Origin: an uncultured Acidimicrobiaceae bacterium
Lineage (GTDB): Bacteria; Actinomycetota; Acidimicrobiia; Acidimicrobiales; RAAP-2
Assembly (NCBI GenBank): GCA_963774245.1
Contig: CAVZDZ010000005.1
Coordinates: 343,480 to 407,479 of the forward strand
Direction of reading: 5' to 3'
DNA: 64,000 nucleotides
The position numbers and the translations under genes are program-made. Numbering within the stretch: the stretch's first letter is position 1; the number at the start of each line of letters is the position of its first letter. Positions 1 through 55,874 of this stretch are shown here, piece by piece. A model generated the notes under the pieces. It was not told where the DNA came from and did no database searches. It saw only the letters and a list, made by a program, of their open reading frames with translations.

Positions 1-734
1 AGCGCGGGACGGGTGGCGAGCGCCCAGGCACCGACGGCGACGGCTGCGAACACGGAGAACAACACGAGCAACAGCAGCACCTCGACGCTGATGAAGAACT
101 CGACCGTCACCAGCAGGCCCAGCCCCGCTCCGACCCAGAGCCGATTGCGCCGTCGACGAACGAACAGCTCGTCGAGGCACCCGATGATGAGGGGGATCGG
201 GGCCAGCAGCCCGAAATTGGGATGGGCGAAGGCCAGACTCACCAGCACGAAGGGCGAGAATCCGAAGAACAGGCCTCCGACGAAGGCGGCCGGCGACCAC
301 GGGACCCATCGCCGCAGCAGCCAGAACATCGACAGCGCCGACAGGGGCGGAGATACCAGGTCGATCAGGTTCAGGGACGCGGTGGGACCGAATAGCCAGG
401 TGACCGGGGCAAAGACGATCCCGAGGCCCAGCGAGTTGGGCGCCATGTTGATGCCGACCGGAGCGAGGAGCTTCGAGGAGTAGAACGGGTTGAGACCGTG
501 GCTCAGGGCGTAGGCCGGCCACTTGATGACCCAGAGGGTCAGCGCGGCGTCTCCGCACCCACAGGTGGTGACGGTGCTCAAGTGGGGCAGCACGTGCCAC
601 CAGAGCACGATCGACGCCAGCAGGTAGATACCGATGGCGACCAGGTACGGGCGTCGAGCCGTAGGGGAGCCGACCGGGGCCGCTCCGGCTCTGACCTCGG
701 CCACCGGTGGTTGGGCCACCGTCGCCTGGCTCAT
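1..734 (-). CDS. Polytopic membrane protein of an uncharacterised 'CGCGD-loop' family, paralogue A (N-terminal ~244 aa only; gene continues past the window start)
   Basis: Absent from the ORF track because it runs off the window. Hand translation of the minus strand from ATG 734..732 gives MSQATVAQPP..RRPYLVAIGIYLLASIVLWWHVLPHLSTVTTCGCGDAALTLWVIKWPAYALSHGLNPFYS..LLRRWVPWSPAAFVGGLFFGFSPF..LDELFVRRRR. This is colinear with the N-termini of the genes at 4470, 6560, 9935 and 13456. Confidence 0.75.
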   Translation of the reverse strand, partial: MSQATVAQPPVAEVRAGAAPVGSPTARRPYLVAIGIYLLASIVLWWHVLPHLSTVTTCGCGDAALTLWVIKWPAYALSHGLNPFYSSKLLAPVGINMAPNSLGLGIVFAPVTWLFGPTASLNLIDLVSPPLSALSMFWLLRRWVPWSPAAFVGGLFFGFSPFVLVSLAFAHPNFGLLAPIPLIIGCLDELFVRRRRNRLWVGAGLGLLVTVEFFISVEVLLLLVLFSVFAAVAVGAWALATRPA

Positions 735-6559: not shown

Positions 6560-8665
6560 GTGGCAGATCTGGTCGGACGTTCGCGCCAGTTTCCGGATCT
6601 CATCGGCCAAACGGATGATGACATCGTGACGACGACCGATCGCCTTCCACCCGTACCCCCGTCACCCGATGCCCTGACCGAGGGCAACCAACAGCCGCGT
6701 CCTGATCCCACGGATTCCGCCGGCCCCCCCGGACGCCATCGGATCCGGCCCGTGCTCATCAGTGGCGGTCTGTACCTGGTGTTGTCGGTCCTCGTGTGGT
6801 GGAACGTGTGGTCCAGTCATCCGACCTCGACCACCACCTGTGGATGCGGTGACAGCTCGCTGTTCACCTGGTTCCTCGAGTGGCCGGCCTACGCCATGAC
6901 CCATGGGCTCAATCCCCTCTTCTCCACGGCGATGATCTATCCGAGGGGCGTCAATCTGTTGGCCAATACGGCCGAGGTCGGATTCGGCGTCGTCCTGGCT
7001 CCGATCACCTGGATCTTCGGGCCGGTGGCCACGCTCAATGTCGCGCTCACGCTCAGTCCCGCGCTCTCTGCCCTGGCCATGTTCGTCCTGCTTCGCCGAT
7101 GGGTGACCTGGCAGCCGGCCGCGTTCTTCGGTGGTCTGCTCTACGGTTTCTCTCCGTTCTTCCTCTCTTACCTCACTGACGCCCACCTCATGATCGGGGC
7201 CGCGTTCGTTCCTCCATTGATCGTCGCCTGCCTCGATGAGCTGATGGTGAGGCAACGTCGCCGCCCGATCGCCACCGGTGTGGTGCTCGGTCTCCTGGTG
7301 GTCGTCCAGTTCTTCATTGGGACCGAAGTGTTGGCCATCGTGATCGTCGCGGCGGTCATTGCCACCGCCCTGCTGGTGATCTATGCCGGGCTGCGCCATT
7401 TCGATGTGCTCCGCACCCATGTCCGCCCGGCAGTCGTCGGCCTGTGTTCCGCCGGCGTGACGGCCGGGGTCCTGCTGGCCTATCCAATCTGGTTCGCCTT
7501 CGCCGGCCCGGCCCATCTGTCCGGAAACCTCTGGGATAACCCGTTCCTGAGCTACGGCGGGCCTAATGTGTCGGCCTATTTTGTCCCGGAGGCCCCCTCG
7601 GGTGCTGCGCTCGCCACCAGCCTGCGATGGGGCGGGTATCAGGGCCTGACGCTGTCCCAGCAGTACTTCGGCTTCGGCATGGCCGCAGTACTCGTCCTCG
7701 GATGCATCGTGTGGCGTAAAGATCGCCGCCTCTGGCTGTTCGGCGCGGTCGGCCTGAGCGGCGTGCTCCTCGCCTTCGGGCTGGGAATCAAGGGTTGGTC
7801 GGCCTGGCGACTGTTCGTCAGGTTCCCGACGATGGAGAACATCATCCCCGGCCGGTTCCTGCTGGTCGTCTATCTGGCCGTCGCCACCATGCTGGCCATC
7901 ATCCTCGACCATGCCTATGGCGGCGTCCGTGACTGGTGGCAGGCAACCTCGAGTGCCGGTCCGCACGACGTACCGGGCATCGCCGGCGGTGGTGCCCGGA
8001 GGGTGGCGGCAGCGGTGGGAGTACTGCTCGCGGTCATCGCCCTGGGTCCGATCGCCGCCTACCTCTCGCGGGGCCTGCCCATCACCACCACTCCCGTGGT
8101 CCTTCCTCCCTGGTTCCGGACCGTCGCTCCCACCCTCACCGGCGATCCTGTGATCCTGGCCTTTCCTGCTCCCTTCAGACTGGCCGAGACCACGTTGACC
8201 TGGCAGGCGGTCAGCGGGATGCACTACTCCATCGTGGGTGGCGCAGGGCCGAGCTCCATACCGCAGCGGGCCGGCAAGGAGAAGGTCGCTCAACACCTCA
8301 TTGGCGACTACTCCATCTCCTCGAGCCGCTCGAGCCCGGACTTGAAGCAGGTCGCCGAGGTCAGGTCTGCCCTGGACGAGTGGGGGGTGACCACGATCGT
8401 CATTCCCGATCCGACCCATCTTCCGCTGTATGAACAGGTGTCCCACGTGAGGTCGCTCGTGGTCCTGCTGACCGCGGCCACGGGCCAACGGCCAGAGTGG
8501 CAGGCGGATGCCTGGGTGTGGCACGACGTCGCCCACGCCGGACCACCGGTGCTGTCATCGGCCTCCGCACTGAAGCAGTGCACCATCGGGCCGGCCATCG
8601 GCAGCCCAGCCGACATCGATCAAGCCGGTGCGTGCGTGCTGGCGACCCGATCGGCAGGGCGGTGA
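6560..8665 (+). CDS. 'CGCGD-loop' polytopic membrane protein, paralogue C
   Basis: Intact 701-aa ORF. Motifs: LVLSVLVWWNVWSSHPTSTTTCGCGDSSLFTWFLEWPAYAMTHGLNPLFS, GVNLLANT, LLRRWVTWQPAAFFGGLLYGFSPF, LDELMVRQRRRP. C-terminal WGVTTIVIPDPTHLPLYEQ. Start codon not certain. Confidence 0.8.
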   Translation: MADLVGRSRQFPDLIGQTDDDIVTTTDRLPPVPPSPDALTEGNQQPRPDPTDSAGPPGRHRIRPVLISGGLYLVLSVLVWWNVWSSHPTSTTTCGCGDSSLFTWFLEWPAYAMTHGLNPLFSTAMIYPRGVNLLANTAEVGFGVVLAPITWIFGPVATLNVALTLSPALSALAMFVLLRRWVTWQPAAFFGGLLYGFSPFFLSYLTDAHLMIGAAFVPPLIVACLDELMVRQRRRPIATGVVLGLLVVVQFFIGTEVLAIVIVAAVIATALLVIYAGLRHFDVLRTHVRPAVVGLCSAGVTAGVLLAYPIWFAFAGPAHLSGNLWDNPFLSYGGPNVSAYFVPEAPSGAALATSLRWGGYQGLTLSQQYFGFGMAAVLVLGCIVWRKDRRLWLFGAVGLSGVLLAFGLGIKGWSAWRLFVRFPTMENIIPGRFLLVVYLAVATMLAIILDHAYGGVRDWWQATSSAGPHDVPGIAGGGARRVAAAVGVLLAVIALGPIAAYLSRGLPITTTPVVLPPWFRTVAPTLTGDPVILAFPAPFRLAETTLTWQAVSGMHYSIVGGAGPSSIPQRAGKEKVAQHLIGDYSISSSRSSPDLKQVAEVRSALDEWGVTTIVIPDPTHLPLYEQVSHVRSLVVLLTAATGQRPEWQADAWVWHDVAHAGPPVLSSASALKQCTIGPAIGSPADIDQAGACVLATRSAGR

Positions 8666-9934: not shown

Positions 9935-11995
9935 ATGGGCGCTGATCGGGGAGGGGCGACGACGCGGCCCCCTTTTGGTTCCGAGCCCGGTGAAGTCCAC
10001 GCTCACCGTCTGCGCCCGGTGCTCGTCGCCGCGGCGCTCTATCTGGTGGCCTCCATCGTGGTGTGGTGGGAGGTGTGGTCGGGTCATCCGACCTCCAGTA
10101 CCGGTTGCGGGTGCGGCGACAGCTCCCTGTTCACCTGGTTCCTGGCCTGGCCCGCTTACGCCATCACCCATGGGGCGAACCCCTTCTTTTCGACCCGTCT
10201 GTTCCATCCGGAGGGCGTCAACCTCCTGGCCAACACCAGCCAGCTGGCCATCGGCGTCACGCTGGTCCCGGTCACCTGGATCTTCGGGCCCATCGCATCG
10301 CTCAACGTGGCCCTCACGCTGAGCCCGGCGTTGTCGGCGCTGGCCATGTTCGTGCTCCTCCGCCGCTGGGTGCACTGGCAGCCGGCCGCGTTCGTCGGGG
10401 GTCTGCTCTACGGCTTCTCCCCGCTGGCCCTGGCCAACATCGCCGATGCCCATCTGATGATCGGGATGGTGCCGGTGCCCCCGCTGGTCGTCCTCTGCCT
10501 TGACGAGCTGTTGATCCGCCAACGACGTCGACCGGTGCCAGTCGGTATCGGGCTCGGTCTGCTGATCACGTTGCAGTTCTTCCTCAGCACCGAATTCCTG
10601 TTGATGACCGTCGTCGCCGGCGTCATCGGGGTGGTGCTCATCGTCGGCTACGCCCTTCTCCGTCACCCCGACGCCGTCCGTCGCCACTTCAGGTTCGCCG
10701 TCGTCGGCCTCGGGGCCGGAGTGGTCACCGCGGGAGTGCTGCTCGCCTACCCGGCGTGGTTCGCGGTGGCCGGACCGGCCCACTTCACCGGGACGGTGTG
10801 GGCCGGCTTCGACCTCCGGACGGGGGGGACGACGCTGGGCCATTTCTTCGTGCCGCAGTCGACGGCCGCAGCCCGCAGCTCCCTCGGGCCCTTCGCCTTC
10901 TCGCTCAGTGCCCGGACCGGTGGCTACCGCGGGGCCATCCTCTCCCCTCAGTACTTCGGCTTCGGTGTGTTGGTGGTCGTGGCCGCCGGATTGGTCGCCT
11001 GGTGGCGGGACCTTCGCCTGTGGCTGTTCGGTGGCGTGGCGGTGGCTTCGGTCGTCCTGTCCCTGGGCGCACCGAGGGGAAGCCTTTCGGTGTGGGGGAT
11101 CCTGGCCGGGCTGCCCCAGTTCGAAAACGTCGTGCCCAGCAGGTTCGTGCTCATCACCTACCTGGCCGTGGCCGTGCTGCTGGGGCTGATCGTGGACCAC
11201 ACCCACGAGTGGGTGTGTGCCCGACTGGCCGTCGGCCAGGACGGTGCCGCCCAGGGTGGCTCGGGGTCCGGGGCCTGGTACGGGGCGCTGGCCGGAATGG
11301 CAGTGGCGGCCGTCGCGCTGGTGCCGGTCGGTCTCTACGTGGGACAGAACCTGCCCATCGCCACCCAGGCGGTGGTGGCGCCGTCATGGTTCCGGAAGGT
11401 CGCTCCCCGTCTGCCCCCTCATCAGGTGCTCCTCGTGTTCCCGGCCCCGTTCTCCACCATGCAGAGCGGGATGAGCTGGCAGGCCCAGAATCGGATGCGC
11501 TACTCGATGGTCGGAGGCGGAGGGCCCGGCGCCCTCTTCGTGCAGTCCCCGTCCCAACGGCCCGGAGCGGCGGTCATTTCCGCCACCTCCTTCTCCTTCG
11601 GCCAGGGACTCACCATCACCCCCGAGAAGGTGGCCGCCGTCCGCCGGGCGCTGGACAGCTGGGGGGTCACCATGGTGGTCATCCCCGACCAACCCGAGCT
11701 CCCCGTCTACGACCAGATCCCGTCGGTCCCGTTCGCCGCCGCGCTCATCGCCGCGGCCACCGGGCAACAACCGACCTTGCAGGACCACGCTTGGGTATGG
11801 ACGGGGGTCGATCACGCCGGCCCACCGGCGCCCATCACCACGAGCCGGTTCTCCCTCTGCACCGTCGGCCTGGCCACTCACGGAACGACTGCCGTGGACC
11901 GGGCCACCAGATGCGTGCTGGCACCGACCGCGGCAACCGTCCCGACCGCATCCGATCCAGCCATGCCGACGGCCACGAGCGCAGCCGGCCCATGA
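9935..11995 (+). CDS. 'CGCGD-loop' polytopic membrane protein, paralogue D
   Basis: Intact ORF (track 9878..11995). I prefer ATG 9935 because 9878-9883 still lies in the ACAD relic. Motifs: LVASIVVWWEVWSGHPTSSTGCGCGDSSLFTWFLAWPAYAITHGANPFFS, GVNLLANT, LLRRWVHWQPAAFVGGLLYGFSP, LDELLIRQRRRP. C-terminal WGVTMVVIPDQPELPVYDQ. Confidence 0.8.
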   Translation: MGADRGGATTRPPFGSEPGEVHAHRLRPVLVAAALYLVASIVVWWEVWSGHPTSSTGCGCGDSSLFTWFLAWPAYAITHGANPFFSTRLFHPEGVNLLANTSQLAIGVTLVPVTWIFGPIASLNVALTLSPALSALAMFVLLRRWVHWQPAAFVGGLLYGFSPLALANIADAHLMIGMVPVPPLVVLCLDELLIRQRRRPVPVGIGLGLLITLQFFLSTEFLLMTVVAGVIGVVLIVGYALLRHPDAVRRHFRFAVVGLGAGVVTAGVLLAYPAWFAVAGPAHFTGTVWAGFDLRTGGTTLGHFFVPQSTAAARSSLGPFAFSLSARTGGYRGAILSPQYFGFGVLVVVAAGLVAWWRDLRLWLFGGVAVASVVLSLGAPRGSLSVWGILAGLPQFENVVPSRFVLITYLAVAVLLGLIVDHTHEWVCARLAVGQDGAAQGGSGSGAWYGALAGMAVAAVALVPVGLYVGQNLPIATQAVVAPSWFRKVAPRLPPHQVLLVFPAPFSTMQSGMSWQAQNRMRYSMVGGGGPGALFVQSPSQRPGAAVISATSFSFGQGLTITPEKVAAVRRALDSWGVTMVVIPDQPELPVYDQIPSVPFAAALIAAATGQQPTLQDHAWVWTGVDHAGPPAPITTSRFSLCTVGLATHGTTAVDRATRCVLAPTAATVPTASDPAMPTATSAAGP

Positions 11996-18573: not shown

Positions 18574-20580
18574 TTACGACTTGACGATCACCGTGAAACT
18601 CCGCTTTGCCGTCTCGGGGGTCGCGGTCGAGTCGGTTGCCTCCGCCGTGAACGTGAAGCTACCCGTGGCCGTGGGGACGCCGGTCAGCTGTCCGCCGGTT
18701 CCGAGGGTGACCCCCGTTGGCGGCGAACCCGCCGAGACCGCCCAGGTATAGGGGGCGGTCCCTCCCGTCGCGGCCAGGGTCTTCGAGTACGCCACGTTCA
18801 ACTTGGCGGTGGCGAGCTTCGTCGTCTTGACGGTCAGTGGGACGTCCGGGGCGACGGTGAGGGACTCGGCTTGAGTGGCGCTCTCGCTACCGTCGACCAC
18901 CTTGAGCGTGAACGCCGTTGTTCCCGCTCCGGTCGGGGTGCCGGTGATGGCCCCGGTCGTCTTGTCGAGCTTCAGTCCCTTGGGCAGCTTTCCCTGCGAC
19001 AAGGAGAACTTGTAGCTCGCCGGGCTGGTGCCGCCGCCCGCGTAGACGGTGTCCGAGTAGCTGGACCCCTGCGTGGCCGCGGTCAGCGGCTCATCGATGA
19101 GGCTGACCGGATAGGTGGGCGAAGCCGGCATGGTGGCGTTGCAGACCACGCCACTCGGTCCATTCGCCCATGAGTCGCAGGTCGGACCGGACTGGACGAG
19201 CCGGTCCGGCAGGATCGAGTGCATGAGTGAGGCCGCCGTCGTCACTTCCGGATACGGCTGATCGTCGATATTGACCAGGCCGAAGTCATTGTTCTCCCCG
19301 TTGGGAACGCGGCCGTTGGCCGGCTGGTCGGTGTACTGGAACCATTCGTCGCCGACCAACCAGGGCGCGTCCTCGTACAACGGAGCCAGGAAATTGGCGT
19401 AGTCCGTGGCCCGGGCCTGCTGGTTCGCCGAGACGTAGTAGATGCCGGGGTCGGTATTCGGATCCTGGGGCCCCGGAGCGATGAAGGCGTACTCGCCGAT
19501 CATCATCGGCCCGTTGAAGTAGGACGCCATGTTGGCCAGGTTGGGCTCGACGGGAAGGTAGTAGGGCCAGACCTTGTCGACAGCCTGGGCAATGCCCGGA
19601 GGGAGCGTGTAGTCCTCGACGCTGAACACGTTGACATAGGGGACGGCCGACTCGATCACCTGGGGCTGGATCTCTTGGCCCTCCGCCTTCACCCCGAGGA
19701 TCAGGTGGTTGGTGTCGTACATGCGCACCGCCGCGGTGGTCACCGAGAAGTACCGCGTGGTCACCGCGGAGATGAATCCGTTCAGGTTCCCCGCGTACTC
19801 CTGGGCCACCGCCAGCCCGGGTGAGCCGGCGGGTAGTTGCAGGTACGCCTGCTGGAGGTTCTCCCCATCGGGCAGTCCGGGTGGCCCCCATCCGGGCTCA
19901 TCGTCGGTGAAGTAGCCGATCACATTGGGGTTGTCCGCCCATTGGGGGACTTCAGACGCGGCGTCGGCGTCGGTGTCGGTGACAAACGACGAAGCGAAGA
20001 CGTCGGTTTCGATGCCCATATCCAGTTGGACGGTGAAGGGCATCTGGGTGCCGATCGTGGTGTCGTCCGAGTAGTCGCCGATGTTATTGAAGCCCCACGA
20101 CCGCAGCCGGGCCAGGGTGGCCGTGCCCCAGGCCGCCGTGCTCGGGTAGTCGGCGGCCACGGTTTGGGCGTAGGGGCTCTGTCCGGTCACCTGGTCGACA
20201 TCGCCGGCGGCCGAAACATGGTCGACCCCGTCGGCGTAGAAGGGCTGTCCGGTGGGCGTGACCAACCACCAGCGGCCGTCAGCCTGACCGGTGGCGAAGT
20301 AGCCGGTCGCCGGGAAGGTGATGGGGCCGGTGGTCTTCTTGGCCGACAGCTGCATCTCCTTGGGGGTCCTGACCTTCCCCGCCTTGGTCACGGCCGGAAT
20401 GGTCACGGCGAACTTGGCCGCGGCAGCCTCGTCGGCGCTGACCGAGGGAACCTTGGTCGAAGTGGTGACCGCCCCGGCGCCGACCGCGGGCGGGACGAAT
20501 GCGCTGCTGAGGAGCGCCGCCGCCGCCACCAGGGCCGCGCCCGTGCCCATCCGAATTTGAACTTTCCGACCCAATGCCAT
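18574..20580 (-). CDS. Secreted glycoside-hydrolase-like protein with two C-terminal Ig-like ('putative Ig'/cadherin-like) domains
   Basis: Intact 668-aa ORF. Signal peptide MALGRKVQIRMGTGAALVAAAALLSSAFVPPAVGAGA. Core motifs FTDDEPGWG, MIGEYAF, WFQYTDQPANGRVPNGENNDFGLVNIDDQPY, a pattern I associate with clan GH-A TIM-barrel glycosidases (family unresolved). Two ~90-aa repeats: ..SYKFSLSQGKLPKGLKLDKTTGAITGTPTGAGTTAFTLKVVD and ..APYTWAVSAGSPPTGVTLGTGGQLTGVPTATGSFTFTAEATD. Confidence 0.6.
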   Translation of the reverse strand: MALGRKVQIRMGTGAALVAAAALLSSAFVPPAVGAGAVTTSTKVPSVSADEAAAAKFAVTIPAVTKAGKVRTPKEMQLSAKKTTGPITFPATGYFATGQADGRWWLVTPTGQPFYADGVDHVSAAGDVDQVTGQSPYAQTVAADYPSTAAWGTATLARLRSWGFNNIGDYSDDTTIGTQMPFTVQLDMGIETDVFASSFVTDTDADAASEVPQWADNPNVIGYFTDDEPGWGPPGLPDGENLQQAYLQLPAGSPGLAVAQEYAGNLNGFISAVTTRYFSVTTAAVRMYDTNHLILGVKAEGQEIQPQVIESAVPYVNVFSVEDYTLPPGIAQAVDKVWPYYLPVEPNLANMASYFNGPMMIGEYAFIAPGPQDPNTDPGIYYVSANQQARATDYANFLAPLYEDAPWLVGDEWFQYTDQPANGRVPNGENNDFGLVNIDDQPYPEVTTAASLMHSILPDRLVQSGPTCDSWANGPSGVVCNATMPASPTYPVSLIDEPLTAATQGSSYSDTVYAGGGTSPASYKFSLSQGKLPKGLKLDKTTGAITGTPTGAGTTAFTLKVVDGSESATQAESLTVAPDVPLTVKTTKLATAKLNVAYSKTLAATGGTAPYTWAVSAGSPPTGVTLGTGGQLTGVPTATGSFTFTAEATDSTATPETAKRSFTVIVKS

Positions 20581-45304: not shown

Positions 45305-45976
45305 CTACCCCTCGCGCAGGACGTAGCCGACCCCTCGCGCCGTGTGGATCAGACGCGGCTCGCCGTTGGCCTCGGTCTTGCGCCGGAGGTAGCCGACGTA
45401 GACGGCGAGCGAGTTGGTGCCCGAGTCGAAGGTGTACCCCCACACCCGGTCGAGGATGAGCTCGCGGGTCATCACCTGGCGCGGATGGCGCAGCAGCAAC
45501 TCGAGCAGGTCGAACTCGATGCGGGTCAGGGTGAACTGCCGGTCGCCCCGGTGGACCTCGCGGGTGGTGGGGTCGAGGGTGAGGTCGGAGAAGCGGAGGA
45601 CTTCGCCGGCGTCCTCGGGCCGTCGTCGGAGCAGGGCCCGCAGCCGGGCCAGCAGCTCGGCCAGGGCGAAGGGCTTCACCAGGTAGTCGTCGGCCCCGGC
45701 GTCGAGGCCCTGGACCCGGTCGTTGATGGCGTCCCGGGCGGTGAGCATGAGCACCGGCGTGTCGTCACCGGCCGCCCGGAGCCGACGGCACACGTCGAGC
45801 CCGTCGATGGTGGGGAGGCCGATGTCGAGGATCACCGCATCGGGGGGACGGATGGCGATCTCCTCGAGGGCCTGGGGCCCGTCGGCGGCCAGGGTGACCT
45901 CGTACCCCTCCAGCCGGAGGGCGCGGTTGAGCGCACCACTGACCGCCGGATCGTCATCGACAACGAGTATCCGCAT
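45305..45976 (-). CDS. OmpR-family response regulator
   Basis: Intact 223-aa [51 protein letters not shown], plus a winged-helix C-terminus [31 protein letters not shown]. Confidence 0.9.
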
Positions 45977-46338: not shown

Positions 46339-48182
46339 TCAGGCGTGGGCCTTCCGGCTCCGGCTCCGCTGCCGTCCCCGGATGGCGGCGTCGAGGATGA
46401 CCTTGCGCAGCCGGACCGCCTTCGGGGTCACCTCGACGCACTCGTCGTCGGCGATGAACTCGAGGGCCTGCTCCAGCGAGAGCAGCAGACGGCGGGGTGA
46501 GGCGGATGGCCTCGTCGGCCGTCGCCGACCGCACGTTGGTCAGCTTCTTCTCCTTGGTCGGGTTGACGTCCATCTCCTCGTCCCGGGCGTTCTCGCCCGA
46601 TGACCATGCCCTCGTAGACCTCGGTGGCCGGGCCGACCAGCAGGATGCCCCGCTCCTGGAGGCTCATCAGGGCGTAGGCGGTGGTGATGCCCCGCCGGTC
46701 GGCCACCATGGAGCCGTTGCGCTTGGTCTTGAGCTCGCCGTGCCACGGCTCCCAGCCGTCGAAGACGTGGTGGAGCATGCCGGTGCCCCGGGTCTCGGTC
46801 ATGAACTCGGTGCGGAAGCCGACCAGGCCGCGGGCCGGCACCCGGTAGTCCATGCGCACCCAGCCGGTGCCGTGGTTGACCATCTCGATCAGGCGACCCC
46901 TTGCGCAGGGCCAGCAGCTGGGTGACCACGCCCAGGTAGTCGTCGGGGACGTCGATGGCCACCCGCTCCATGGGCTCGTGGATCTTGCCGTCGATCTCGC
47001 GGGTGACCACCTGGGGCTTGCCCACGGTCAGCTCGAACCCCTCGCGGCGCATGGTCTCGACCAGCACGGCCAGCTGCAGCTCGCCCCGGCCCTGGACCTC
47101 CCAGGTGTCGGGTCGCTCGGTGGTGCCGACCCGCAGCGAGACGTTGCCCACCAGCTCGGTGTCGAGCCGGCTGAGGATCAGGCGGGCGGTCAGCTTGGTG
47201 CCGTCGGTGCCGGCCAGCGGCGAGGTGTTGATGCCGATGGTCATGGACAGGCTGGGCTCGTCGACGGTGATGACCGGCAGCGGCCGGGGATCGTCGGGGT
47301 CGGCCAGGGTCTCGCCGATGGTGATCTCGGCCATGCCGGCCACGGCGACGATCTCGCCCGGGCCCGGCCTCGGCGGCGTCGACCCGGTCGAGGGCGTCGG
47401 TGACGTACAGCTCGGTGATCTTGGTCCGCTCGATCGTGCCGTCGAGCTGGCACCAGGCCACCGTTCGATCCCTTGCGCAGGGTGCCGTTGTGGACCCGGC
47501 AGATGGCCAGTCGACCGAGGTAGGGAGAGGCGTCGAGGTTGGACACGAGGGCCTGCAGCGGGGCCGTCGGGGTCGTAGATGGGGGCGGGGATGCGGTCGA
47601 GGATGGCCTCGAAGAGGGGCTCGAGGTCGGTGCCCACCACGCCCTGCTCGGTGGCCGCCCAGCCGGCCCGGGCGTTGGCGAAGAGGATGGGGAAGTCGAT
47701 CTGGTGCTCGTCGGCGTCGAGGTCGAGGAAGAGCTCCTCGACCTCGTGGACCACCTCGTCGATGCGGGCGTCGGGCCGGTCGACCTTGTTGACCACCAGC
47801 ACCACCGGCAGGCGGGCCTGCGAGGGCCTTGCGCAGCACGAACCGGGTCTGGGGCAGCGGGCCCTCGGAGGCGTCGACCAGCAGCAGCACCCCGTCGACC
47901 ATGGTCAGGCCCCGCTCGACCTCGCCGCCGAAGTCGGCGTGGCCGGGGGTGTCGATGATGTTGATCTTGACCCCGTTGTGCAGCACGGCGGTGTTCTTGG
48001 CCAGGATGGTGATGCCCTTCTCCCGCTCGAGGTCGCCCGAGTCGATGACCCGCTCGTTGACCGCCTCGTTGGCCCGGAAGGCCCCTGACTGCCAGAGCAT
48101 GGCGTCGACCAGGGTGGTCTTGCCGTGGTCGACGTGGGCCACGATGGCCACGTTGCGGATGTCGTCGCGTGCAGGAGGGCAT
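46339..48182 (-). CDS. typA: Translational GTPase TypA/BipA; eight +1 frame changes as assembled
   Basis: [50 protein letters not shown], ..[13 protein letters not shown].., ..[22 protein letters not shown].., [16 protein letters not shown], ..[25 protein letters not shown]. Fragments in ORFs 47241, 46889, 46540, 46428 and 45989. Confidence 0.9.
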
Positions 48183-48225: not shown

Positions 48226-50709
48226 TCATCCGTAGTTGGTGAGCCCGGTGGTTCCTGCCGCACAATACGCCGTGGTCGGCCCGGTGCCCGAGCTGTACGG
48301 CGCCAGCAGCGACGGGCACGAGGTGGTGGTGGGATTGACGCTGCCACCCGACGAGGAACCCAGTATCCACGAGTCGGTGGTGGGCACCAGGTAGCTCGGC
48401 GGCGAGACGAAGGGCAGGAGGGGGTCCCACGTGTAGTACTTGGAGTAGCCGCTGGTCCCGAGGAGGGCGACCGGTCCACGGGCGTACTGCTCGATCGATC
48501 CGTAGACGATCAGCTTCCCCTCCTGACTGCCGAGGGTGTAGTTGTTGACGACGAAGGACTGGTTGAGGGCCAGCACGGCGGCGTCGATCGTCACCGAGCC
48601 GCTGGAGGACTCGGGACCGGGGTTGCACAGAGCACCCGGGCTGGCACCGCACGACGGGAGGAGGGAGCCGTTGGGTGCGGTCACCGGTTGGTTGACCTCG
48701 ACGTAGTTGTTGGCGATGAGCCCGAGGGCGTCGTTGACCGCACCGGTCCCCTTGTTGTAGTTGCAGTAGCTCTCGGAGGCCGTGCCCGCGGTCGACGAGC
48801 CGGGTTTCACCGTCCAGGTGCAGTCGTCGTAGGTGGTGTTGCCGTCGATGATGATGTTGTCCTGGCTGCCGATGGTCAGGTCGCCGGAGATGTTGCCGTT
48901 GACGAAGACGTCGGCCTCGGTGTCCGGGCTCGAGGTCTGGCCGTAGTAGCAGCCGTTGCACTGGGACTCGATCTGCGCGTTGGCCCCGTACGAGGTGACC
49001 GGTGTCCCGGTCGAGGTCGTCCCGTAGACGCCGGACGAGGTGGTGTAGTTGTTGTCGCCACTGTAGGTCGCCCCGTACGTCGGCACCGTGGCGTTGGCGG
49101 CCAGGGTCACCCGGCAGGTCGCCGTGGATGTCGTGCCCGTTGCGGTGGTGAGCGGCTGCGTGGAGCAGCCGGACACCGCGGTCGTCGTGGTACTGCCGTG
49201 GGTCGTGGTCGACTGGGTGAACTGAGCGGTGCCGGTCGGGTTGCCGTAGGCCGATGCACCGGTCACCGTGGCGGTCAGGGTGAACGTGGTGGAGGTGTCC
49301 TGCTGCTGGACGGCGCCGGCGAGGAGGTCACATTGGTGAGTGGTGGAGGTCACCGGATCGTCGAACGGGTTCGACCAGGCCACTTCGTCGGCGGAGGGGG
49401 CAGTCTCGGCGTAGACCACCCCATTGGCCGGAAAGCTTCCGGTGCCGTTCACCGGACACGAGTTGTTGTTGACCGGAGCCGGGTCGTTGAGCGTGCTGAA
49501 GCCCCCAGTGCTCGGGGTGTCGGGGCTGACCACCGTCATCTGGTTGCCGTTCAAGGTGACCTGGGTGGGACCTGCATACAGGCAACCGTCGAGCCCCGCC
49601 AGCGTCTCCAGCTGCCGTATGGGCCGCGGGTTCGGTCTCGATGGTGTTGGCGTAGGAGCTGGTGGAGCTACCCGGCGAGAGGAGGGTGTCGTCCTGGCAG
49701 TTGCTCGACCCGGAGGTCTTCGCCGTGGCAGAGCTGACGAACTGAGTCGTACTCAGCGGGGCACAGGCGGCGACATTGTTGGCGGCTACTTGGTTACAGC
49801 CGCTGCTACTCCCGCTCATCCCCTGATTGTCGGTCACGAACAGGCAGTTCGGGTCGGCGGTCTGCACGCTGGTCGGTCCCGGCCACGTCAATGTACCGGT
49901 GGTCCCGAAGGCGGGGTTCCCGTCGCTGGAGTCGATGAAGACGGAATCGTTGGTGTACACCGGTCCGTTGACGACGTCACCGTTCCCGAAGTAGACGGGA
50001 GTGCACTGGCAGGAGAGTTGTCGATGTTGTAGCCCAGCTTCCAGTTGTAGTTACACGTGCTGTAGTTGCCGTCGGGGTTGTACGACTCGTAGTTCGACCA
50101 CCAGACGTGGGTGAGGAAGCCGTTCTGCGGAGTGACACTGATGGTTTCGGTCTCGAACACATAATGATTCGGTGTCGCCGGGTCGTTGGCGGCTCCGGCG
50201 ATCTCCACGCTGAGGGAGGTGAGGGCCCCGGTGGTGGTGTTGAAGGTCGGTTGGGGGTTTCCGAACGAGTAGTACTCGGACTCCGAACCGGACGTGCCGG
50301 TCCCCTGTACCTGGGTCCACGTCTCGTAGGAGAGCCCGGAACAGGTGCCGGCTCCGTTGGTGGCACTGCTGCACTGGGCCAGGTCCGGATTGATGTTGAT
50401 GGCGGTGAGGTACGTATTGGCCCCGGCCTCCAACGCCCGCGCCGTGTAGATCTGGACGGAGCGGGTCTGCTGGAGGGGATCGGAGGCGATGGAGTTCTGG
50501 ATGAGGGCCGCGCCCGTCACCGTCATCACGACGGTGAGAGCGAGCACGGCAATCAGCGCGGTCTGACCGGTCTCGTCCATGGCGAGGTGGAACCGTCTCC
50601 GGGCGCCCCTGCACCACCTGACCGCGCCGGGGGGTTTGTCCGGCCCAGATGCGCAGACCTCGCAGCGTGGCCAAGCCCGGTCGGATTGGAGACGGGGAGC
50701 GGGTGACAT
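48226..50709 (-). CDS. PilX-like pilus protein: PilX-type N-terminal hydrophobic segment fused to a ~780-aa Thr/Ser/Gly/Cys-rich extracellular body; two frame changes (~50015, ~49620) as assembled
   Basis: ..RRFHLAMDETGQTALIAVLALTVVMTVTGAALIQNSI (ORF 49888..50709). Continues CQCTPVYFGNGDVVNGPVYTNDSVFIDS.. (49328..49960). Then QLETLAGLDGCLYAGPTQVTLNGNQMTVV..DVFVNGNISGDLTIGSQDNIIIDGN..KLIVYGSIEQYARGPV.. (48226..49554). ATG 50709 lies 6 nt after the upstream stop. Confidence 0.65.
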
Positions 50710-50715
50710 GGTGAC

Positions 50716-51671
50716 CTACCCAACACTCGATGTATACTGGTATGGAAGGTTCGGGGACGTCGAGTTGCCCTGGGCCCGGTAGACCAGGCTGGCGTTCTCC
50801 GAGTTGTTACCGGACACATCGACCGGGGACTTTCACCTGGAGGTCGATCCCGACTCGCTGGATGGCGTCGGCCGGGCAGGTGACGGCCAAGGTGGCCGAT
50901 CCACTCGCCGGCTTGCACTGGGCGAGGTTCGCGGTGGAGATGCCGTAGGTTGCCGACGGGACCGGAAAGCTCATGCTGGTCACGTTGGCCGCGCGTGAGC
51001 ACGAAGGTGTTGCAGGCGGGGACGGTCTGCGTCGCGCAGGTCGTGGCCGGGTCGAAGACGACGTAGTTGAAGACCGGCTGGGCCGTCGTGTTGATCACGT
51101 TCAGCACGTCGGTGAGGAGCTTGTAGGTGGTCGGGTACGTGCACTTGGTGCCAGTGCTCACCCCGGGGCAGGTTCCCGCGTTCGGCAGGTACTCCTGGAC
51201 CTGGAAGTCACAGGGGGTCTTGACCGCGCAGGTGGTGGTGCTCCCGGTATCCGGAGTTCCGCTGATCGTGGTGAGACCGGCAACGATCTTCGCCGGGCCA
51301 TTGGCGTTGGCGATATTGGCGTAGAAGGTCAGCGAGAAGTTGCCGATTCCCGAGACGGTGTCGGGAGTGCCGGAGGTGTCTACGCCGAAACCCGGTATGG
51401 GCGCACCGGTGGCGTCGGCTGGACCTGGCTCCGCTTCTGCGGCGACCAACGGGCGGAGGTTTGCCGCGGCCGGGAGGATGGTGTCGTACTCCTGGTACTG
51501 GGCATCCACCGAGCCACCGAGCTGAGTGAAGGTGGTCATCGACAGCATCACCAGCGTGGTGAGTACGACGAGCAAGGTCGAGGCCAGCAGCAGTTCGACC
51601 AGCGTCATGCCCTCGTCGTCGTGCCGGCGTCGTGCCCGCTGGGCGACCTCTCGGATCCGCGTCATGTTCAT
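50716..51671 (-). CDS. Prepilin-type N-terminal cleavage/methylation domain protein (PilW-like minor pilin/pseudopilin); two +1 frame changes (~50985, ~50825) as assembled
   Basis: MNMTRIREVAQRARRRHDDEG|MTLVELLLASTLLVVLTTLVMLSM (Gly-1, Glu+5) in the frame of ORF 50553..52649. Hand-joined tail ..NTFVLTRAANVTSMSFPVPSATYG..AVTCPADAIQRVGIDLQVKVPG..VSGNNSENASLVYRAQGN..SSVG*. The 3' end is inferred. Confidence 0.65.
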
Positions 51672-51673
51672 GG

Positions 51674-54483
51674 TCAGAGCACCACCGGCACGGGGCCGGG
51701 CAGGGGGTGGGAGGATAACTGACCCACTGATACTGGTGACGACCGTCGAGGCTCCGACCATGACCTCGAGCGTGGTGGTGGTGGCCACCGAGGCGATCGT
51801 CCCCTTGATGGTGACGTTGTACAGACCGTAGGGGACCGCGGTCCGGCTGAGCCCATCGGGTCCGGTGCTCGGCAGGGTGTAGGAATCAGCCGCGCACGCG
51901 GTCCCCGCGGTGGTCGACGCCGCAGTCATGGTGACGGTGGCACCCGACACGGGCGTCCCGGTCGAGGTGGTGACGTCGAGCGGCAGCATGCCGAGGGGCA
52001 CGGTGGCGGTGGGAGTCGACCCGGGTACACCGGTGAAGGCACCGTTGACCCCCGAGGCGGTGTACGTGCCCAGCAGGTCGGAGTAGTTCGCCTCGCCCTT
52101 GCAGTCGCCGGCGGCGATGGCAAACCCGTTGGGTTGGGGGTAGAGGGTGTTGGTCATCACACCGGTGGCACTGCTGTAAGGCTCAGTGGTCCACGCGGTG
52201 GTGTTGGCGCTGACCTCGACCGGTATCGAGCTCACCTGGGCACCGGTGAAGGTCGCCGGCGTTGAGTTCGACCACGTCCCACCGGTCCCGCCGTTGGTGG
52301 TCACGATGAACGGGCCGGTGGCCGCTGGCCCCGACGGCGGCGCACTCCGAACCGGCCGCCGGCGCCTCGCAGGCGATGCCGGAGAAGTACTCGATCTGCC
52401 CGATCGAGGGCGCTGGGCAATGCCACCGTGTGGAGCGAGCTCCAGACACCCGCACCACGGGAACCTTGGAGCGAGGTGGCCAGCATGGTGCCGCTGGTGC
52501 TGCCGGTTTTCGATCCGACCAGCGCGCAGTCGCCCAGGTCGCTTCCGGAGGGCGCACCGCAGGCCACGCCGGTGAGGGTGCTGACGTAGGTCGAGAGGCC
52601 CGCCACCGATCGCCAGTCGTGTGGGGTCTGGGTCATGTCCGCGTCCCACGCGGCGACACCGGTGGTGGCGGTGCCCATGGCCATGCAGGTGGTGGTGCTG
52701 CAGGACAGGCCGGTCAGGGTCAGCGCCGAGTCGGCGGTGAAGTCCGTCTCGGTGACCCAGGTGCTGGCGGTGCTGGCCGTCGAGCTGACCGACGCGGTCA
52801 GGATCACCGGGTCAGGGTCGGACGGTCGGCGCGCTGTCACCGGTGCCCGATGGCCACGCACGTGTAGGGGGCCGTGCGCTGCCGGGCAGGAGACGGTTCC
52901 GACCGTGGTCAGGTTGGCGGGCATGGTGTCCAGGGTGAAGGTCGGACCCGTCAGGGTGGTGGGCGAGGCGCGGGCTCCGGGGTCCCCGTCGAGACGCAGG
53001 ACGCCGGCGGACGCCGCGGTGGCCGGCGGGGTGACGGTCTTGAACGAGCCGGTCAGCTCGCAGACGGTTGCGGCCGGGCAGGCGATGGACGAGAGGGAAC
53101 TGAATGTCTGGGCTGCATCGGTGAATTCCTGCCAGATCGGTGACCCCGAGAACGATCCGGCGAGGAGGATCGGTGTCCCCGTGGTGGAGGTCCCGATGGC
53201 GTAGCACCCGTCGGTCGAGGGGCAGACCACCTGGGTGAGGTTGGCGATCCCGGTCGGGATGGTGTCGAGTGTGGCGGAACTCAGCGAGCCGGTCCCCGAG
53301 TAGATGACGCCGCCCACCGGACGCGAGGTTCCCGACTCCCACGCAGGTGGGAGTCGCCGCGGTGGTACAGGCCACACCGGTGATCCGGCTGGCACCAGCG
53401 AGGGATCCGGTCGTCCACGTCGAGGTGCCGCCCGACGTGGCCTGCGCCGACGAGCTGGTACCGGTTCCGGTGGTGACGCAGCTGATGGCGCTCGACCCCG
53501 GGCACTCGACACCGTCCTGGACGGGCGTGGCCGACGAGAAGGTGACCGTCGGGCTCACCCCTTCGTCGTAGGTGACCACCACCGGCTGCTCCTGGGTGAC
53601 CAGAACGGTAAAGGTGCTGGGGGTCACCACCGGCGACTGGTTGCCCGAGGGGTCGACGAAGGGCGGGTTCCCGCTGTAGAAGGGGAACGGGGCTTTTCCG
53701 GAATCCGTTGGCCGGCTGTCCCACCGTCACCGTATAGCTGCCGGTGGGAACCTGGTCGAAGACACAGCCGTTGGCGTCGGGGTAGAGGGTCTGGGTGGTG
53801 CTCGAGCCTCCGGACGGGCCGGTGACGGTCACCGGGACGGCCTGGAGGCGGGCCGAGGCGGTGATGCCGTTCACATCGGTGATCCCGGAATTGGTCACTT
53901 GCACGGCGATGAATCCGTCGGTCGGGACCCCTGGAGTCGGGTACTGCAGGTTGGTGCTGTCGGTCACACTCTGGCCACCCTTGTCCCACGCGACGGTCAC
54001 CTGCACCACGACCACCCCGGGGTTGGTCGTGCTGGGTACGGCGGTGGCGCAGAGGTTGTCTGATACCCCGGTGGCGAGCTGCTCGGAGTACTCCGCCGTC
54101 ACTGAGTAGGTGGTTCCGCCGACGATAGGTGTCGCCGACACCACCCCGGCCGGATCGACGGGGGCGGCAGACACGTCGAGCTGCACGGTGTTCGTGGTCG
54201 GGTCGATCGGCGGAGTCGAATTGGAGAGGATCTCTGTCCATTCGTCGGCGAGTTCCAAGGCCGCTTCCTTCTGCCGGACGTTGGCGGCCTGGGCCACCAT
54301 GGTGTCGAGGAGGTAGCCGAGGGGCACGGTGACGATGAGGAGGATGGTGAAGGCCACCACCACCTCGATGAGGGTCACCCCTTCGTCGGATTGGCCCTTG
54401 GCCCGGGCGGCCGTTCGGGCGCGCGCCCTGGCCGGGTTCAGTGTCCATCGTCGGGACCACTTGGACTTCTGGGCAGAAAACAT
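51674..54483 (-). CDS. Giant prepilin-type N-terminal cleavage/methylation domain protein (PilV-like pseudopilin, ~930 aa) with an internal Cys-pair repeat domain; at least five +1 frame changes as assembled
   Basis: MFSAQKSKWSRRWTLNPARARARTAARAKGQSDEG|VTLIEVVVAFTILLIVTVPL (ORF 53281..54696 frame). It then runs through the frames of ORFs 52812..53630, 52301..53512, 52183..52557 and 50553..52649, ending ..PVPVVL* at 51674 (ORF 51674..51856). ATG 54510 is an alternative start. The stop lies 2 nt before the next start. Confidence 0.7.
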
Positions 54484-54509
54484 GACGTTGAGAGGCAGAG
54501 TAAGGGTCA

Positions 54510-54523
54510 TGAACGTGCGTTCA
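54510..54523. promoter_or_regulatory. Perfect 6-2-6 inverted repeat TGAACG-tg-CGTTCA at the 5' end of the pilin-like operon (candidate operator)
   Basis: Read directly: tgaacgtgcgttca. It lies in the only lower-G+C intergenic stretch (54484..54708) upstream of the first prepilin-type gene, and overlaps the alternative ATG 54510. Confidence 0.25.
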
Positions 54524-54708: not shown

Positions 54709-55874
54709 TCAGTACGACTTGGGCAACCCCAGGGAGTGCTGGGCCACGAAGTTGAGGATCATCTCGCGGCTGACCGGGGCGATCCGGAGCAGCCGGGTCA
54801 TGCCCCACAGGTCGGCCAGGCCGTACTCGGACGACATGCCGTTGCCCCCGTGGGTCTGGATGGCCTGGTCCAGGGCGGCCAGGGCGGCGTCGGCGGCGGC
54901 GAACTTGGCCATGTTGGCCGCCTCGCCCGCCTCGGGGGTGTCCCCGGCGAAGTCGCACAGCCAGGCCGCCTTGTCGGTCATCAGCCGGGCCAGCTCCACG
55001 TCGATCTTGGCCTTGGCCAGCGGGTGGGCGATCCCCTGGTGGCGGCCGATCGGGGTTCCCCACACCTCCCGGCCCTTGGCGTAGTCGGCCGCCTTGTCCA
55101 GCGCGTAGCGGCCGATGCCGTTGGCGGTGGCCGCCGACAGGATGCGCTCGGGGTTGAGCCCGAAGAAGACCTGGCGCAGGCCGTCGCCCTCGTCGCCGAT
55201 CAGCCGGTCCGCCTCGACCTGGACGTTGTCGAAGAACAGGGTGAACTGCTTCTCCGGCGCGGTGATCTCGACCGGGAGCACCTGCTTGTCCAGTCCCGGG
55301 GTGTCGGTGTCCACCACGAAGAGGGACAGCCGTCCCCGACCGGTGTCCGGATCGACGCCGGACCGGGTGACCACCAGTATCGGCCTCGCACTCGTCGACC
55401 CCGGAGATGTAGTACTTCGATCCGTTGAGCCGGTAGATGTCGCCGTCCTTGGTGGCGGTGAGCGAGAGGTTGTGGGAGTTGGACCCGGCGTCGGGCTCGG
55501 TGATGGCGAAGGCCATCTTGAGCTGGCCGGTGGCGAACCCGGGCAGCCACCGCTGCTTCTGGGCCTCGGTCCCGAACTTGGCGATGATGGTGGCGCAGAT
55601 GGCCGGGGACACCACGATCACCAGCAGGGGGCACCCGGCCGCGGCCAGCTCCTCTTGCACCGCGGCCAGCTCGGTGATCCCCCCGCCGCCGCCCGCCGTA
55701 CTCCTCGGGCACGTTGACCCCGAGGAACCCGGCCTCGGCCACCGCGTTCCACAGCTCGTCGGTGCGCTCGTCGGCGTGGGCCTTCTTCACGTAGTAGTCG
55801 TGCCCGAACTTGGAGGCGATGGACGCGACCGCCTCCCGCAGCATCTGCATCTCGTCGGTTTCGATGAAGTCCAT
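54709..55874 (-). CDS. Acyl-CoA dehydrogenase (AtuD/LiuA-like position in the cluster); two frame changes as assembled
   Basis: MDFIETDEMQMLREAVASIASKF..VNVPEEYGG / LKMAFAITEPDAGSNSHNLSLTA..YRLNGSKYYISG / ..GRHQGIAHPLAKA..IQTHGGNGMSSEYGLADLWGMTRLLRIAPVSREMILNFVAQHSLGLPKSY. GAGGAG precedes ATG 55874. Confidence 0.85.

Follow-up and report, generated by a model that had tools for sequence, protein, structure and literature searches.

Three enlarged candidate minor pilins encoded apart from pilus machinery in uncultured Acidimicrobiales

Introduction

How do three oversized prepilin-type proteins come to be encoded together with no pilus machinery nearby, and what would they belong to? The question is raised by a stretch of 64,000 nucleotides (the window) from an uncultured Acidimicrobiaceae bacterium (GenBank assembly GCA_963774245.1, contig CAVZDZ010000005.1, positions 343,480 to 407,479 of the forward strand). 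Three consecutive genes, here called P1, P2 and P3, lie on the minus strand of the window between positions 48226 and 54483. To our knowledge, there has been hardly any work on type IV pili in monoderm Actinobacteria, and a full-text search of the literature on pili of Acidimicrobiia found nothing specific. A preliminary description of the window proposed that the three proteins form a pilus-tip or priming complex. This proposal is supported by the N-terminal signals of the proteins, the predicted fold of P2 and homologues found within pilus loci. P1, P2 and P3 are probably the three core minor pilins (the I/J/K-type tip or priming set) of a filament resembling a type IV pilus. Grafted modules would have enlarged the set, and its genes lie at a distance from those of the machine.

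Results

N-terminal signals and gene order of the triad

P1 (51674..54483) starts at ATG 54483, with a further ATG at 54510, and stops at 51676-51674. P2 (50716..51671) begins at ATG 51671 and ends with the stop at 50718-50716; P3 (48226..50709) begins at ATG 50709 and ends with the stop at 48228-48226. These positions leave gaps of 2 nucleotides between P1 and P2 and 6 nucleotides between P2 and P3, and the stop of P3 lies ~43-44 nucleotides from the start of typA. All starts, stops and gaps agree with the preliminary description, and the three N-terminal motifs quoted in it were found exactly on the minus strand: QSDEG↓VTLIEVVVAFTILLIV in P1 with the Gly codon at 54381, HDDEG↓MTLVELLLASTLLVVL in P2 at 51611, and DETGQTALIAVLALTVVMTV in P3 at 50571 (the arrow marks the predicted cleavage site). 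A six-frame scan of the whole 64 kb retrieved a strict prepilin motif twice and a PilX-type motif once, all of which are the N termini of P1 to P3.

The class III signal of P1 (54307..54483) comprises a basic leader, the conserved Gly, the segment VTLIE with Glu at the fifth position after cleavage (Glu+5), and a hydrophobic helix of ~22 residues. Homologue searches, queried with frame-joined reconstructions of the three proteins, found 71 relatives of P1, the closest being P0070 (91% identity) and P0071 (78%, 938 residues). The pattern [DE][DE]G↓[VIL][TS]L[IVL]E is present in all full-length members except P0098, which has Ala at position -1, and Glu+5 is present in every full-length sequence; the other apparent exceptions are starts mis-called within the helix. 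P2 has a leader, the motif G↓MTLVE and a hydrophobic helix, and the closest of its 73 relatives is P0141 (93% identity, 315 residues). Glu+5 is invariant in the P2 family (63 of 63 sequences) and Gly-1 occurs in at least 90% of them. Thus, the Gly-1/Glu+5 signal named in the preliminary description is a family-wide property of P1 and P2.

P3 has a long leader ending in DETG↓QTALIAVLALTVV, followed by a hydrophobic helix that lacks Glu+5. The family, with 69 relatives found (closest P0001, 82% identity over 95% of the query), shares the N-terminal consensus D/R-x-G-Q-[TA]-A-[LI]-V-A-V and never has Glu+5. Absence of Glu+5 is a hallmark of the GspK/PilX-type subunits that occupy the very tip, and the PilX-type character first noticed in P3 therefore extends across its family. 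In all loci scanned, the triad ends with P3. The gene order I/V, J/W, K/X with Glu+5 present, present and absent is the canonical pattern of a tip complex, and P1 is tentatively assigned to the GspI/PilV type, P2 to the GspJ/PilW type and P3 to the GspK/PilX type.

Profile searches recognised these N termini to different degrees. P1 scored above the cut-offs of both PF07963 (22.0 and 21.8 against 21.2) and TIGR02532 (18.3 against 16.3), P2 just below them (17.6 and 17.0 for PF07963, 14.2 for TIGR02532), and P3 matched neither model. The first ~60-100 residues of P1 past the cleavage site gave weak matches, below cut-off, to PilV (TIGR02523), GspI (TIGR01707), XpsI, HpsB and ComGE, all of which are I/V-type pilins, and several P1 orthologues carry the JGI label PilV.

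Homologous triads within complete pilus loci

P0069 is a distant relative of P3 that retains the family motifs over its whole length. In its locus (L091), it follows a P1-like gene and a P2-like gene of 238 residues, and downstream of it come pilD, pilM and genes for two bitopic PilN/PilO-like proteins, joined through overlapping stop and start codons. A more complete arrangement was found on a 1.8-Mb contig (L154), where a triad of 505, 220 and 606 residues is surrounded by machinery genes. Pfam searches identified PilB (T2SSE and MshEN domains), a second T2SSE ATPase, PilC (T2SSF), two N_methyl pilins of 150 residues, PilD (A24_N_bact and Peptidase_A24), PilM and PilO. The third pilin gene of this triad matched the hidden Markov model of the P3 family with E = 1.5e-38. 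The major pilins of L154 are of the T4a type (G↓FTLIELL), and no secretin gene precedes rpsL. The whole pilus locus (L154:1-19981) is wedged between rpoC and rpsL-rpsG-fusA-tuf. The order in complete loci of this monoderm type is pilB, second ATPase, pilC, two pilins, the triad, pilD, pilM, pilN-like, pilO.

A metagenome scan with an alignment of 6 short-form sequences found 331 relatives, and 80 loci were kept. An A24 peptidase motif is present in 52 of the 80 loci and lies ~0.5 kb past the P3-like gene wherever its position was printed; two T2SSE ATPase motifs lie upstream in 23-25 of the loci, and rpsL lies downstream in 20. Because short homologous triads sit in machinery loci (L091, L154 and the metagenome set), the window triad is, as judged from sequence homology, an enlarged counterpart of the minor pilins encoded in type IVa-like pilus loci of the monoderm type.

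Absence of machinery around the enlarged triads

The PilB/GspE Walker A motif, PS00662, and the A24 and Flp motifs were all absent from a six-frame scan of the window, and reading of its translations showed housekeeping, envelope-glycosylation and catabolic genes with no pilus machinery. The earlier statement that the window lacks pilus and Tad machinery thus holds in both the motif scan and the translations. Related loci were scanned within 10 kb of the triad (90 loci, 1.7 Mb in total). Prepilin motifs were present at the expected offsets in 84 of the 90 loci and typA was present downstream in 58. No T2SSE ATPase or A24 peptidase motif was detected in any of the 90. Linkage to a machine was thus not seen in the window or, by motif, in the 90 related loci, and was seen for the short-form homologues, with the A24 motif in 52 of 80 loci and the full machine of L154. 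The preliminary description called the operon stand-alone; it does lack machinery nearby, but this is less unusual than was implied, as detached minor-pilin operons are frequent. Minor-pilin operons often lie apart from the machine genes, for example fimU-pilVWXY1E of Pseudomonas aeruginosa and three clusters of Myxococcus xanthus (PMC7541494).

Predicted structures and the enlarged bodies

The AlphaFold2 model of the P2 orthologue P0141 has a predicted local distance difference test score (pLDDT) of 78.7 and a predicted template modelling score (pTM) of 0.73. Structural comparison of this model with the PDB using Foldseek returned XcpW (GspJ) of P. aeruginosa as the top seven matches, with chains from 5bw0, 3nje and 5vtm (probability 0.93-1.00, target-normalised TM score 0.49-0.62; next matches at most 0.13). 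The predicted structure of P2 thus has a J/W-type fold. A profile search of the P2 family alignment against the PDB matched the N-terminal helix only.

The P3 model (pLDDT 78.1, pTM 0.77) opens with a helix of ~60 residues (residues 4-63) and a beta-sheet, both pilin-like, and continues with an Ig-like domain and a beta-rich body at the C terminus. A K/X-type fold was not detected in P3 by whole-chain Foldseek comparison. P3 has 20 Cys residues and many invariant motifs, among them WWSNYES, GPVYTNDS, GCLYxGPT, IDAA..L..SF.V.NY, YGS..Q..RGP and PPSYL.P. No Pfam or NCBIfam model matched its body; matches to S-Me-THD_N, NUP210_Ig and zinc-finger models were discarded as sub-threshold noise. Relatives of P3 reach ~1300 residues and carry FN3 arrays of up to several domains, and the profile search of the P3 family alignment against the PDB matched FN3 only, in the C-terminal extensions of these relatives. 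In five relatives (P0032, P0034-P0036 and P0038), the P3 body is preceded by a Sec-type signal and an Ig-like region, which take the place of a pilin N terminus. A pilin anchor is therefore not indispensable to the body, which seems to be a portable surface module.

P1 is built of the leader, the G↓VTLIE segment with its helix, a pilin head, a beta-sandwich region, eight tandem Cys-pair repeats (approximately 52340..53520) and a C-terminal beta-sandwich that is weakly CarboxypepD_reg-like (approximately 51800..52020). The repeats are ~45-65 residues each and follow the pattern (L/I)T.V.C-x4-10-C.A.G....G around an invariant Cys pair; the invariant Cys columns run from C328/C336 through C704/C713 (P0071 numbering, 56 sequences). 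Matches to PF13620 (CarboxypepD_reg) are on record for two P1 orthologues, and P0076 scored 25.3 bits, below the cut-off. The P1 family alignment had no match in a profile search against the PDB. With a pilin N terminus, Cys-pair repeats and a CarboxypepD_reg-like domain in one chain, and with FN3 and TIG domains in relatives of the triad, P1 conforms to the published definition of a modular pilin (PMC8179133). The large bodies are rich in Thr, Ser, Gly and Ala, and this composition, the eight Cys-pair repeats of P1 and the 20 Cys of P3 agree with the Thr/Ser/Gly-rich bodies and paired Cys residues noticed earlier. These bodies were also described as adhesin- or enzyme-like, which is a putative nature; the matches found were limited to weak CarboxypepD_reg-like ones, an Ig-like domain, and FN3 repeats in relatives. 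None of P1 to P3 ends in an LPXTG motif, and sortase-anchored adhesins were rejected on this ground. The PilY1 beta-propeller (PF05567) had no match in orthologues of P1, P2 or P3 at E up to 1.

Weak tblastn matches of P1 relatives elsewhere in the window, at 18.6-19.3 kb and 60.5-61.4 kb, were judged to reflect composition or Ig-like similarity and not pilins. The match at 60.5-61.4 kb is a carboxyltransferase. That at 18.6-19.3 kb belongs to a secreted protein of 668 residues with a signal peptide (18574-20580, minus strand), the C-terminal region of which weakly matches the C-terminal beta-sandwich of P1 relatives, probably through a shared Ig-like or CarboxypepD_reg-like domain.

Broken reading frames in the window

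The three genes lie where they were first described, but none is one continuous open reading frame (ORF) in the window. The mechanical ORF list gives fragments: 442, 210 and 273 residues for P3, an overlapping read-through of 698 residues for P2, and 403, 272, 471 and 278 residues for P1. A plot of third-position G+C showed a single coding frame at a time that switches among the three frames, dividing P1 into at least six pieces and P2 and P3 into at least three each, and the sequences quoted earlier lie on stop-free stretches of the frames favoured by this plot. Third-position G+C alone was too permissive as a gene filter at such a G+C content; a filter on all three codon positions worked. 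The corrected proteins have ~936-942 (P1), ~317 (P2) and ~827 (P3) residues. About 12 single-base insertions or deletions (indels) fall in P1 of the window, and those of P2 lie near 50992 and 50831.

Two independent assemblies, a 986-kb ENA contig (L008) and a Logan assembly of run ERR10755945 (L009), represent the closest relative of the window, at 94% DNA identity. The ORFs of L008 are intact, with 942, 315 and 828 residues and the same spacing of 2 and 6 nucleotides, close to the sizes of about 930, 320 and 830 residues proposed earlier. With such intact relatives at hand, the failure of the frames to join into long ORFs, which the preliminary description had named as a possible refutation, was not observed. 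Alignment of the window with L008 and L009 showed 24 and 22 indel events, respectively, at essentially identical positions, and only one event in each alignment is a multiple of three. Of the 24 events, 21 are inside P1 to P3 and 3 are at the start of typA. TypA (46348-48182, minus strand) needs at least 5 frame switches and the acyl-CoA dehydrogenase gene (54712-55874, minus strand) needs 2, and the response regulator gene at 45311-45976 has an intact frame. In L008 and L011, both of the ENA series ERZ250395xx, neighbouring genes are fragmented likewise.

Because typA and the acyl-CoA dehydrogenase gene are split in the same way, the frame breaks are window-wide assembly noise rather than decay specific to these genes. 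Decay of P1 to P3 into pseudogenes with real frameshifts would account for ~20 frameshifting indels inside 6.3 kb. However, the same kind of single-base indels occurs in typA and the acyl-CoA dehydrogenase gene, contigs of the ENA series of L008 and L011 also have fragmented neighbours, all three ORFs are whole in two independent assemblies of the 94%-identical relative, and third-position G+C stays at the coding level between the breaks. Pseudogenisation is thus extremely improbable and was rejected. As the indels are spread over the window, any ORF-based reading of it needs frameshift-aware methods. The indels fit an unpolished long-read assembly. Many related metagenome-assembled genomes (MAGs) carry the label MFD, which we take to denote nanopore assemblies of Danish soils.

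Distribution, neighbours and variation of the triad

A scan of species representatives showed that at least 259 genomes encode a relative of P3. The 79 of these that were inspected are all MAGs; they are labelled Acidimicrobiales or Acidimicrobiaceae, a few only Actinomycetes or Actinomycetota, and contain the triad, usually just upstream of typA. The placement in a high-G+C actinobacterial lineage made at the outset is in line with these labels. The isolate names of many of the MAGs refer to peat, bog or palsa. In an exhaustive phmmer search for P3 relatives, 1031 clusters (50% identity) reached E <=1e-3 and 519 reached E <=1e-10. Matches to the P2 family on large contigs all represent the same syntenic locus.

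In every locus examined, a cluster of AtuA and acyl-CoA dehydrogenase genes lies upstream and typA downstream, followed by genes for a response regulator and a histidine kinase. The position between an atu/liu-like cluster and typA, as reported for the window, is thus shared by the loci examined. TypA/bipA (46348..48182, minus strand), which encodes a ribosome-associated GTPase, is a conserved downstream neighbour and counts here as genomic context rather than as a demonstrated component. Both in L154 and where the giant triad precedes typA, the homologous triad is followed by a gene for a GTPase of the EF-G family, which may be a coincidence. The intergenic region of ~200 nucleotides between the stop of the acyl-CoA dehydrogenase gene and the start of P1 (54484..54709) is likely to hold the operon promoter; a consensus scan of its minus strand found no sigma-70-type match, and a simple scan of the minus strand between P3 and typA found no terminator-like site.

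Beyond the triad upstream of typA, further stand-alone triads were found on contigs of the Acidimicrobiales type, at L003:988-11926 and L174:3997-12040. Their first gene encodes a giant prepilin with TIG/IPT repeats, of 2697 or 1658 residues; one of the two triads is part of an island that also holds integrase and toxin-antitoxin genes, and the other lies between sdhA and mdh/icd. A short-form triad stands alone in L175. Two tandem copies of the entire P1-P2-P3 triad precede typA in L013:5904-18304 and in the identically arranged L014. At L078:3002-5422 and L067:3389-5695, P1 is preceded by two additional pilin-like genes, so that five pilin-type genes stand in a row. The first encodes a prepilin with the motif G↓YTL(V/I)E, of ~210 residues in L078 and ~107 residues from Gly to stop in L067; the second encodes a protein of ~560-590 residues that has the motif G↓Y(I/V)LV, lacks Glu+5 and contains beta-helix-like repeats. 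Some genomes hold several cassettes, in Cys-repeat, TIG-repeat and FN3 versions and as tandem duplicates. By analogy, this variation resembles the alternative minor-pilin clusters of M. xanthus and would fit the modular-pilin concept.

Elsewhere in the window, four paralogous large polytopic membrane proteins (~3-722, minus strand; 4656-6281, 6872-8641 and 10127-11845, plus strand) share the motif W(P)AYA(L/M)THG.NP(F/L)(Y/F)S. Their genes sit among acyltransferase-3 and glycosyltransferase genes, and they may have arisen by expansion of a glycosyl- or lipid-transferase family of the envelope.

Discussion

Proposed assembly and adhesive role

As core minor pilins, P1 to P3 would enter the membrane by way of the helix at each N terminus, and a prepilin peptidase would cleave them behind the conserved Gly. 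The helices would bundle into a trimeric cap with P3 on top, since it has no Glu+5 and would have no subunit above it, and with P2 and P1 beneath. This cap would prime polymerisation of the major pilin by an ATPase and a platform protein encoded elsewhere in the genome, and would end at the tip of the filament. Enlargement in the Acidimicrobiales would have occurred through the eight Cys-pair repeats and beta-sandwiches in P1 and through the Ig-like domain and beta-rich body in P3, with FN3 arrays in relatives. With these grafted modules, the tip would display a large disulfide-stabilised binding surface, which is probably an adhesin. The further cassettes held by some genomes, with TIG repeats or as tandem duplicates, suggest that the tip sets are exchangeable.

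Several observations weigh against this assignment. The 64-kb window has no ATPase, platform protein, prepilin peptidase, PilM/N/O or small major pilin, a T2SSE ATPase or A24 peptidase motif occurs in none of the 90 related loci within 10 kb of the triad, and the loci with complete machinery need not be from Acidimicrobiales. The matches of P1 to I/V-type models are all below the curated cut-offs, as are the N_methyl and TIGR02532 scores of P2. The Foldseek matches of P2 to XcpW have modest E-values (0.014-0.07) at 8-10% identity, and the whole-chain P3 model matched only Ig-like domains in the PDB, with no match to GspK, XcpX, PilX or ComZ. Nothing in the large bodies was positively identified as a binding or an enzymatic domain.

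Alternative explanations

The distance from any machine would also be expected if the triad never formed a filament. The pilin-like helices, cleaved or not, would then be mere anchors, and the ectodomains would form a fixed wall-spanning adhesin or stub independent of a pilus machine. The 90 Acidimicrobiales loci without machinery within 10 kb, the similar absence in the window, the further stand-alone triads (L174, L175, L003), surrounded by housekeeping genes or located on an island with an integrase, and the P3 relatives with a Sec-type signal in place of the pilin N terminus are all consistent with such anchors. However, the strict pattern of Glu+5 in P1 and P2 but not in P3 would be needless for an anchor and is predicted if the subunits pack against one another in a filament cap. 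Homologous triads are also embedded within complete pilus loci, and separate minor-pilin operons are common in piliated organisms (PMC7541494). A surface complex of this kind is therefore considered unlikely. A competence-type (Com-like) or secretion-type pseudopilus, in which the large modules capture DNA or act as the tip of a piston, would explain the weak matches of P1 and P2 to ComGE, GspI/XpsI/HpsB/HpsC models and the resemblance of P2 to a type II secretion pseudopilin; the large beta-solenoid minor pilin ComZ of Thermus, as cited in PMC8179133, does bind DNA. Against this, P3 has no structural match to ComZ, and arrays of FN3, TIG and Ig-like domains are characteristic of adhesins. The complete homologous loci contain PilM, PilO, a PilN-like protein, a second T2SSE-family ATPase and two T4a-type major pilins, a combination that fits a type IVa-like pilus and neither a Com nor a type II secretion system, which leaves the pseudopilus improbable.

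Pseudopilins of the Tad/Flp type (TadE/TadF/TadG) would share some of the same features, as TadE and TadF also carry Glu+5 and a TadG-like N terminus resembles that of P3. They could serve the Tad-like machines that are common in Actinobacteria, whose generic systems have been reported without identifiable minor pilins (PMC6668835). However, the G↓x-T-L-x-E motif is of the N_methyl type: PF07963 and TIGR02532 match, whereas TadE (PF07811) and Tad (PF13400) have no match at E up to 1. There is no Flp motif in the window, and the homologues are linked to PilB/PilC/PilD/PilM/PilO rather than to TadA/B/C/Z. Tad pseudopilins were rejected for these reasons and are very improbable. In a more speculative arrangement, the Acidimicrobiales with giant triads would have no PilB/PilC/PilD machine. 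Their triads would be either minor pilins of the generic Tad-like filaments of Actinobacteria (PMC6668835) or self-sufficient caps anchored by pilin helices without a filament, and the cassettes would be exchangeable surface-recognition sets, the main one co-transcribed with typA. We regard this arrangement, too, as unlikely. The core minor pilins of a type IV pilus-like filament remain the preferred explanation of the triad.

Comparison with known systems

A close parallel is the GspI-GspJ-GspK complex (XcpV-XcpW-XcpX; 5vtm, 5bw0, 3nje), which is likewise encoded by three consecutive genes in the order I, J, K, with Gly-1 and Glu+5 in the first two subunits and a last, largest subunit without Glu+5. 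The predicted fold of P2 resembles XcpW and the N terminus of P1 weakly resembles GspI/XpsI. However, P1 is 3-7 times and P3 ~2.5 times larger here, P3 has no detectable match to the GspK/XcpX fold, and the window triad adjoins no machine genes. In addition, the host is of the monoderm type, and the complete homologous loci lack a secretin and are of the type IVa kind (PilM, PilO, second ATPase) rather than a type II secretion system.

With FimU/PilV/PilW/PilX and PilY1 of P. aeruginosa and M. xanthus (PMC7541494), the triad shares an operon of its own away from pilB/C/D and pilM-Q, a putative priming and tip complex, the possibility of several alternative sets per genome, and a candidate adhesive function on a large non-canonical component; the JGI name PilV of P1 orthologues points in the same direction. 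It differs in that there is no separate PilY1 (no PF05567 match at E up to 1), the large modules being fused to the pilins, that there are three genes instead of four or five (but five in L078 and L067), and that sequence similarity is confined to the N-terminal ~60-100 residues.

The modular pilins PilB (vWA) and PilC (lectin) of Streptococcus sanguinis, which act with PilA, are likewise proteins of a monoderm in which extracellular modules have been grafted onto a pilin module, with predicted exposure at the tip (PMC8179133, PMC9934059); module content likewise varies among the triad relatives (Cys-pair repeats, TIG, FN3, CarboxypepD_reg-like). The triad proteins are much larger, with 936 and 827 residues in P1 and P3 and 1658-2697 residues in sister cassettes, whereas the largest modular pilin in a 2021 InterPro survey had 860 residues. 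They are also encoded apart from a pil locus. Their main modules have no Pfam or InterPro signature, so surveys based on signatures would miss them. ComZ, which acts with PilA2 in Thermus thermophilus, is, as cited in PMC8179133, a large minor pilin with an inserted beta-solenoid and thus similar to P3 in its beta-rich body and predicted tip position; P3 differs in having no Foldseek match to ComZ and in its lineage. Proteins A-D of the Verru_Chthon cassette and HpsB/HpsC (TIGR02599, NF038303/4) also form multi-prepilin cassettes and are weakly matched by the N termini of P0074 and P0141. However, these matches are far below the cut-offs and limited to the N-terminal helix, and the taxa and protein bodies are unrelated.

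Implications

Alternative minor-pilin clusters away from the machine (PMC7541494) and large modular minor pilins carrying binding modules (PMC8179133, PMC9934059) are both documented. The triad is only moderately surprising, because modular minor pilins and detached minor-pilin operons are already established as concepts. What is new is a conserved three-gene minor-pilin set, with a third member whose family comprises over 1000 clusters (50% identity), and its occurrence in two forms, one short and within complete pilus loci, the other greatly enlarged and detached upstream of typA (79 inspected genomes). The enlarged triads would extend the known size range of modular pilins. If the assignment is correct, they would offer a route into the surface-adhesion biology of an abundant uncultured soil lineage, and the natural series from short to giant triads would allow the grafting of modules onto a pilus tip to be studied.

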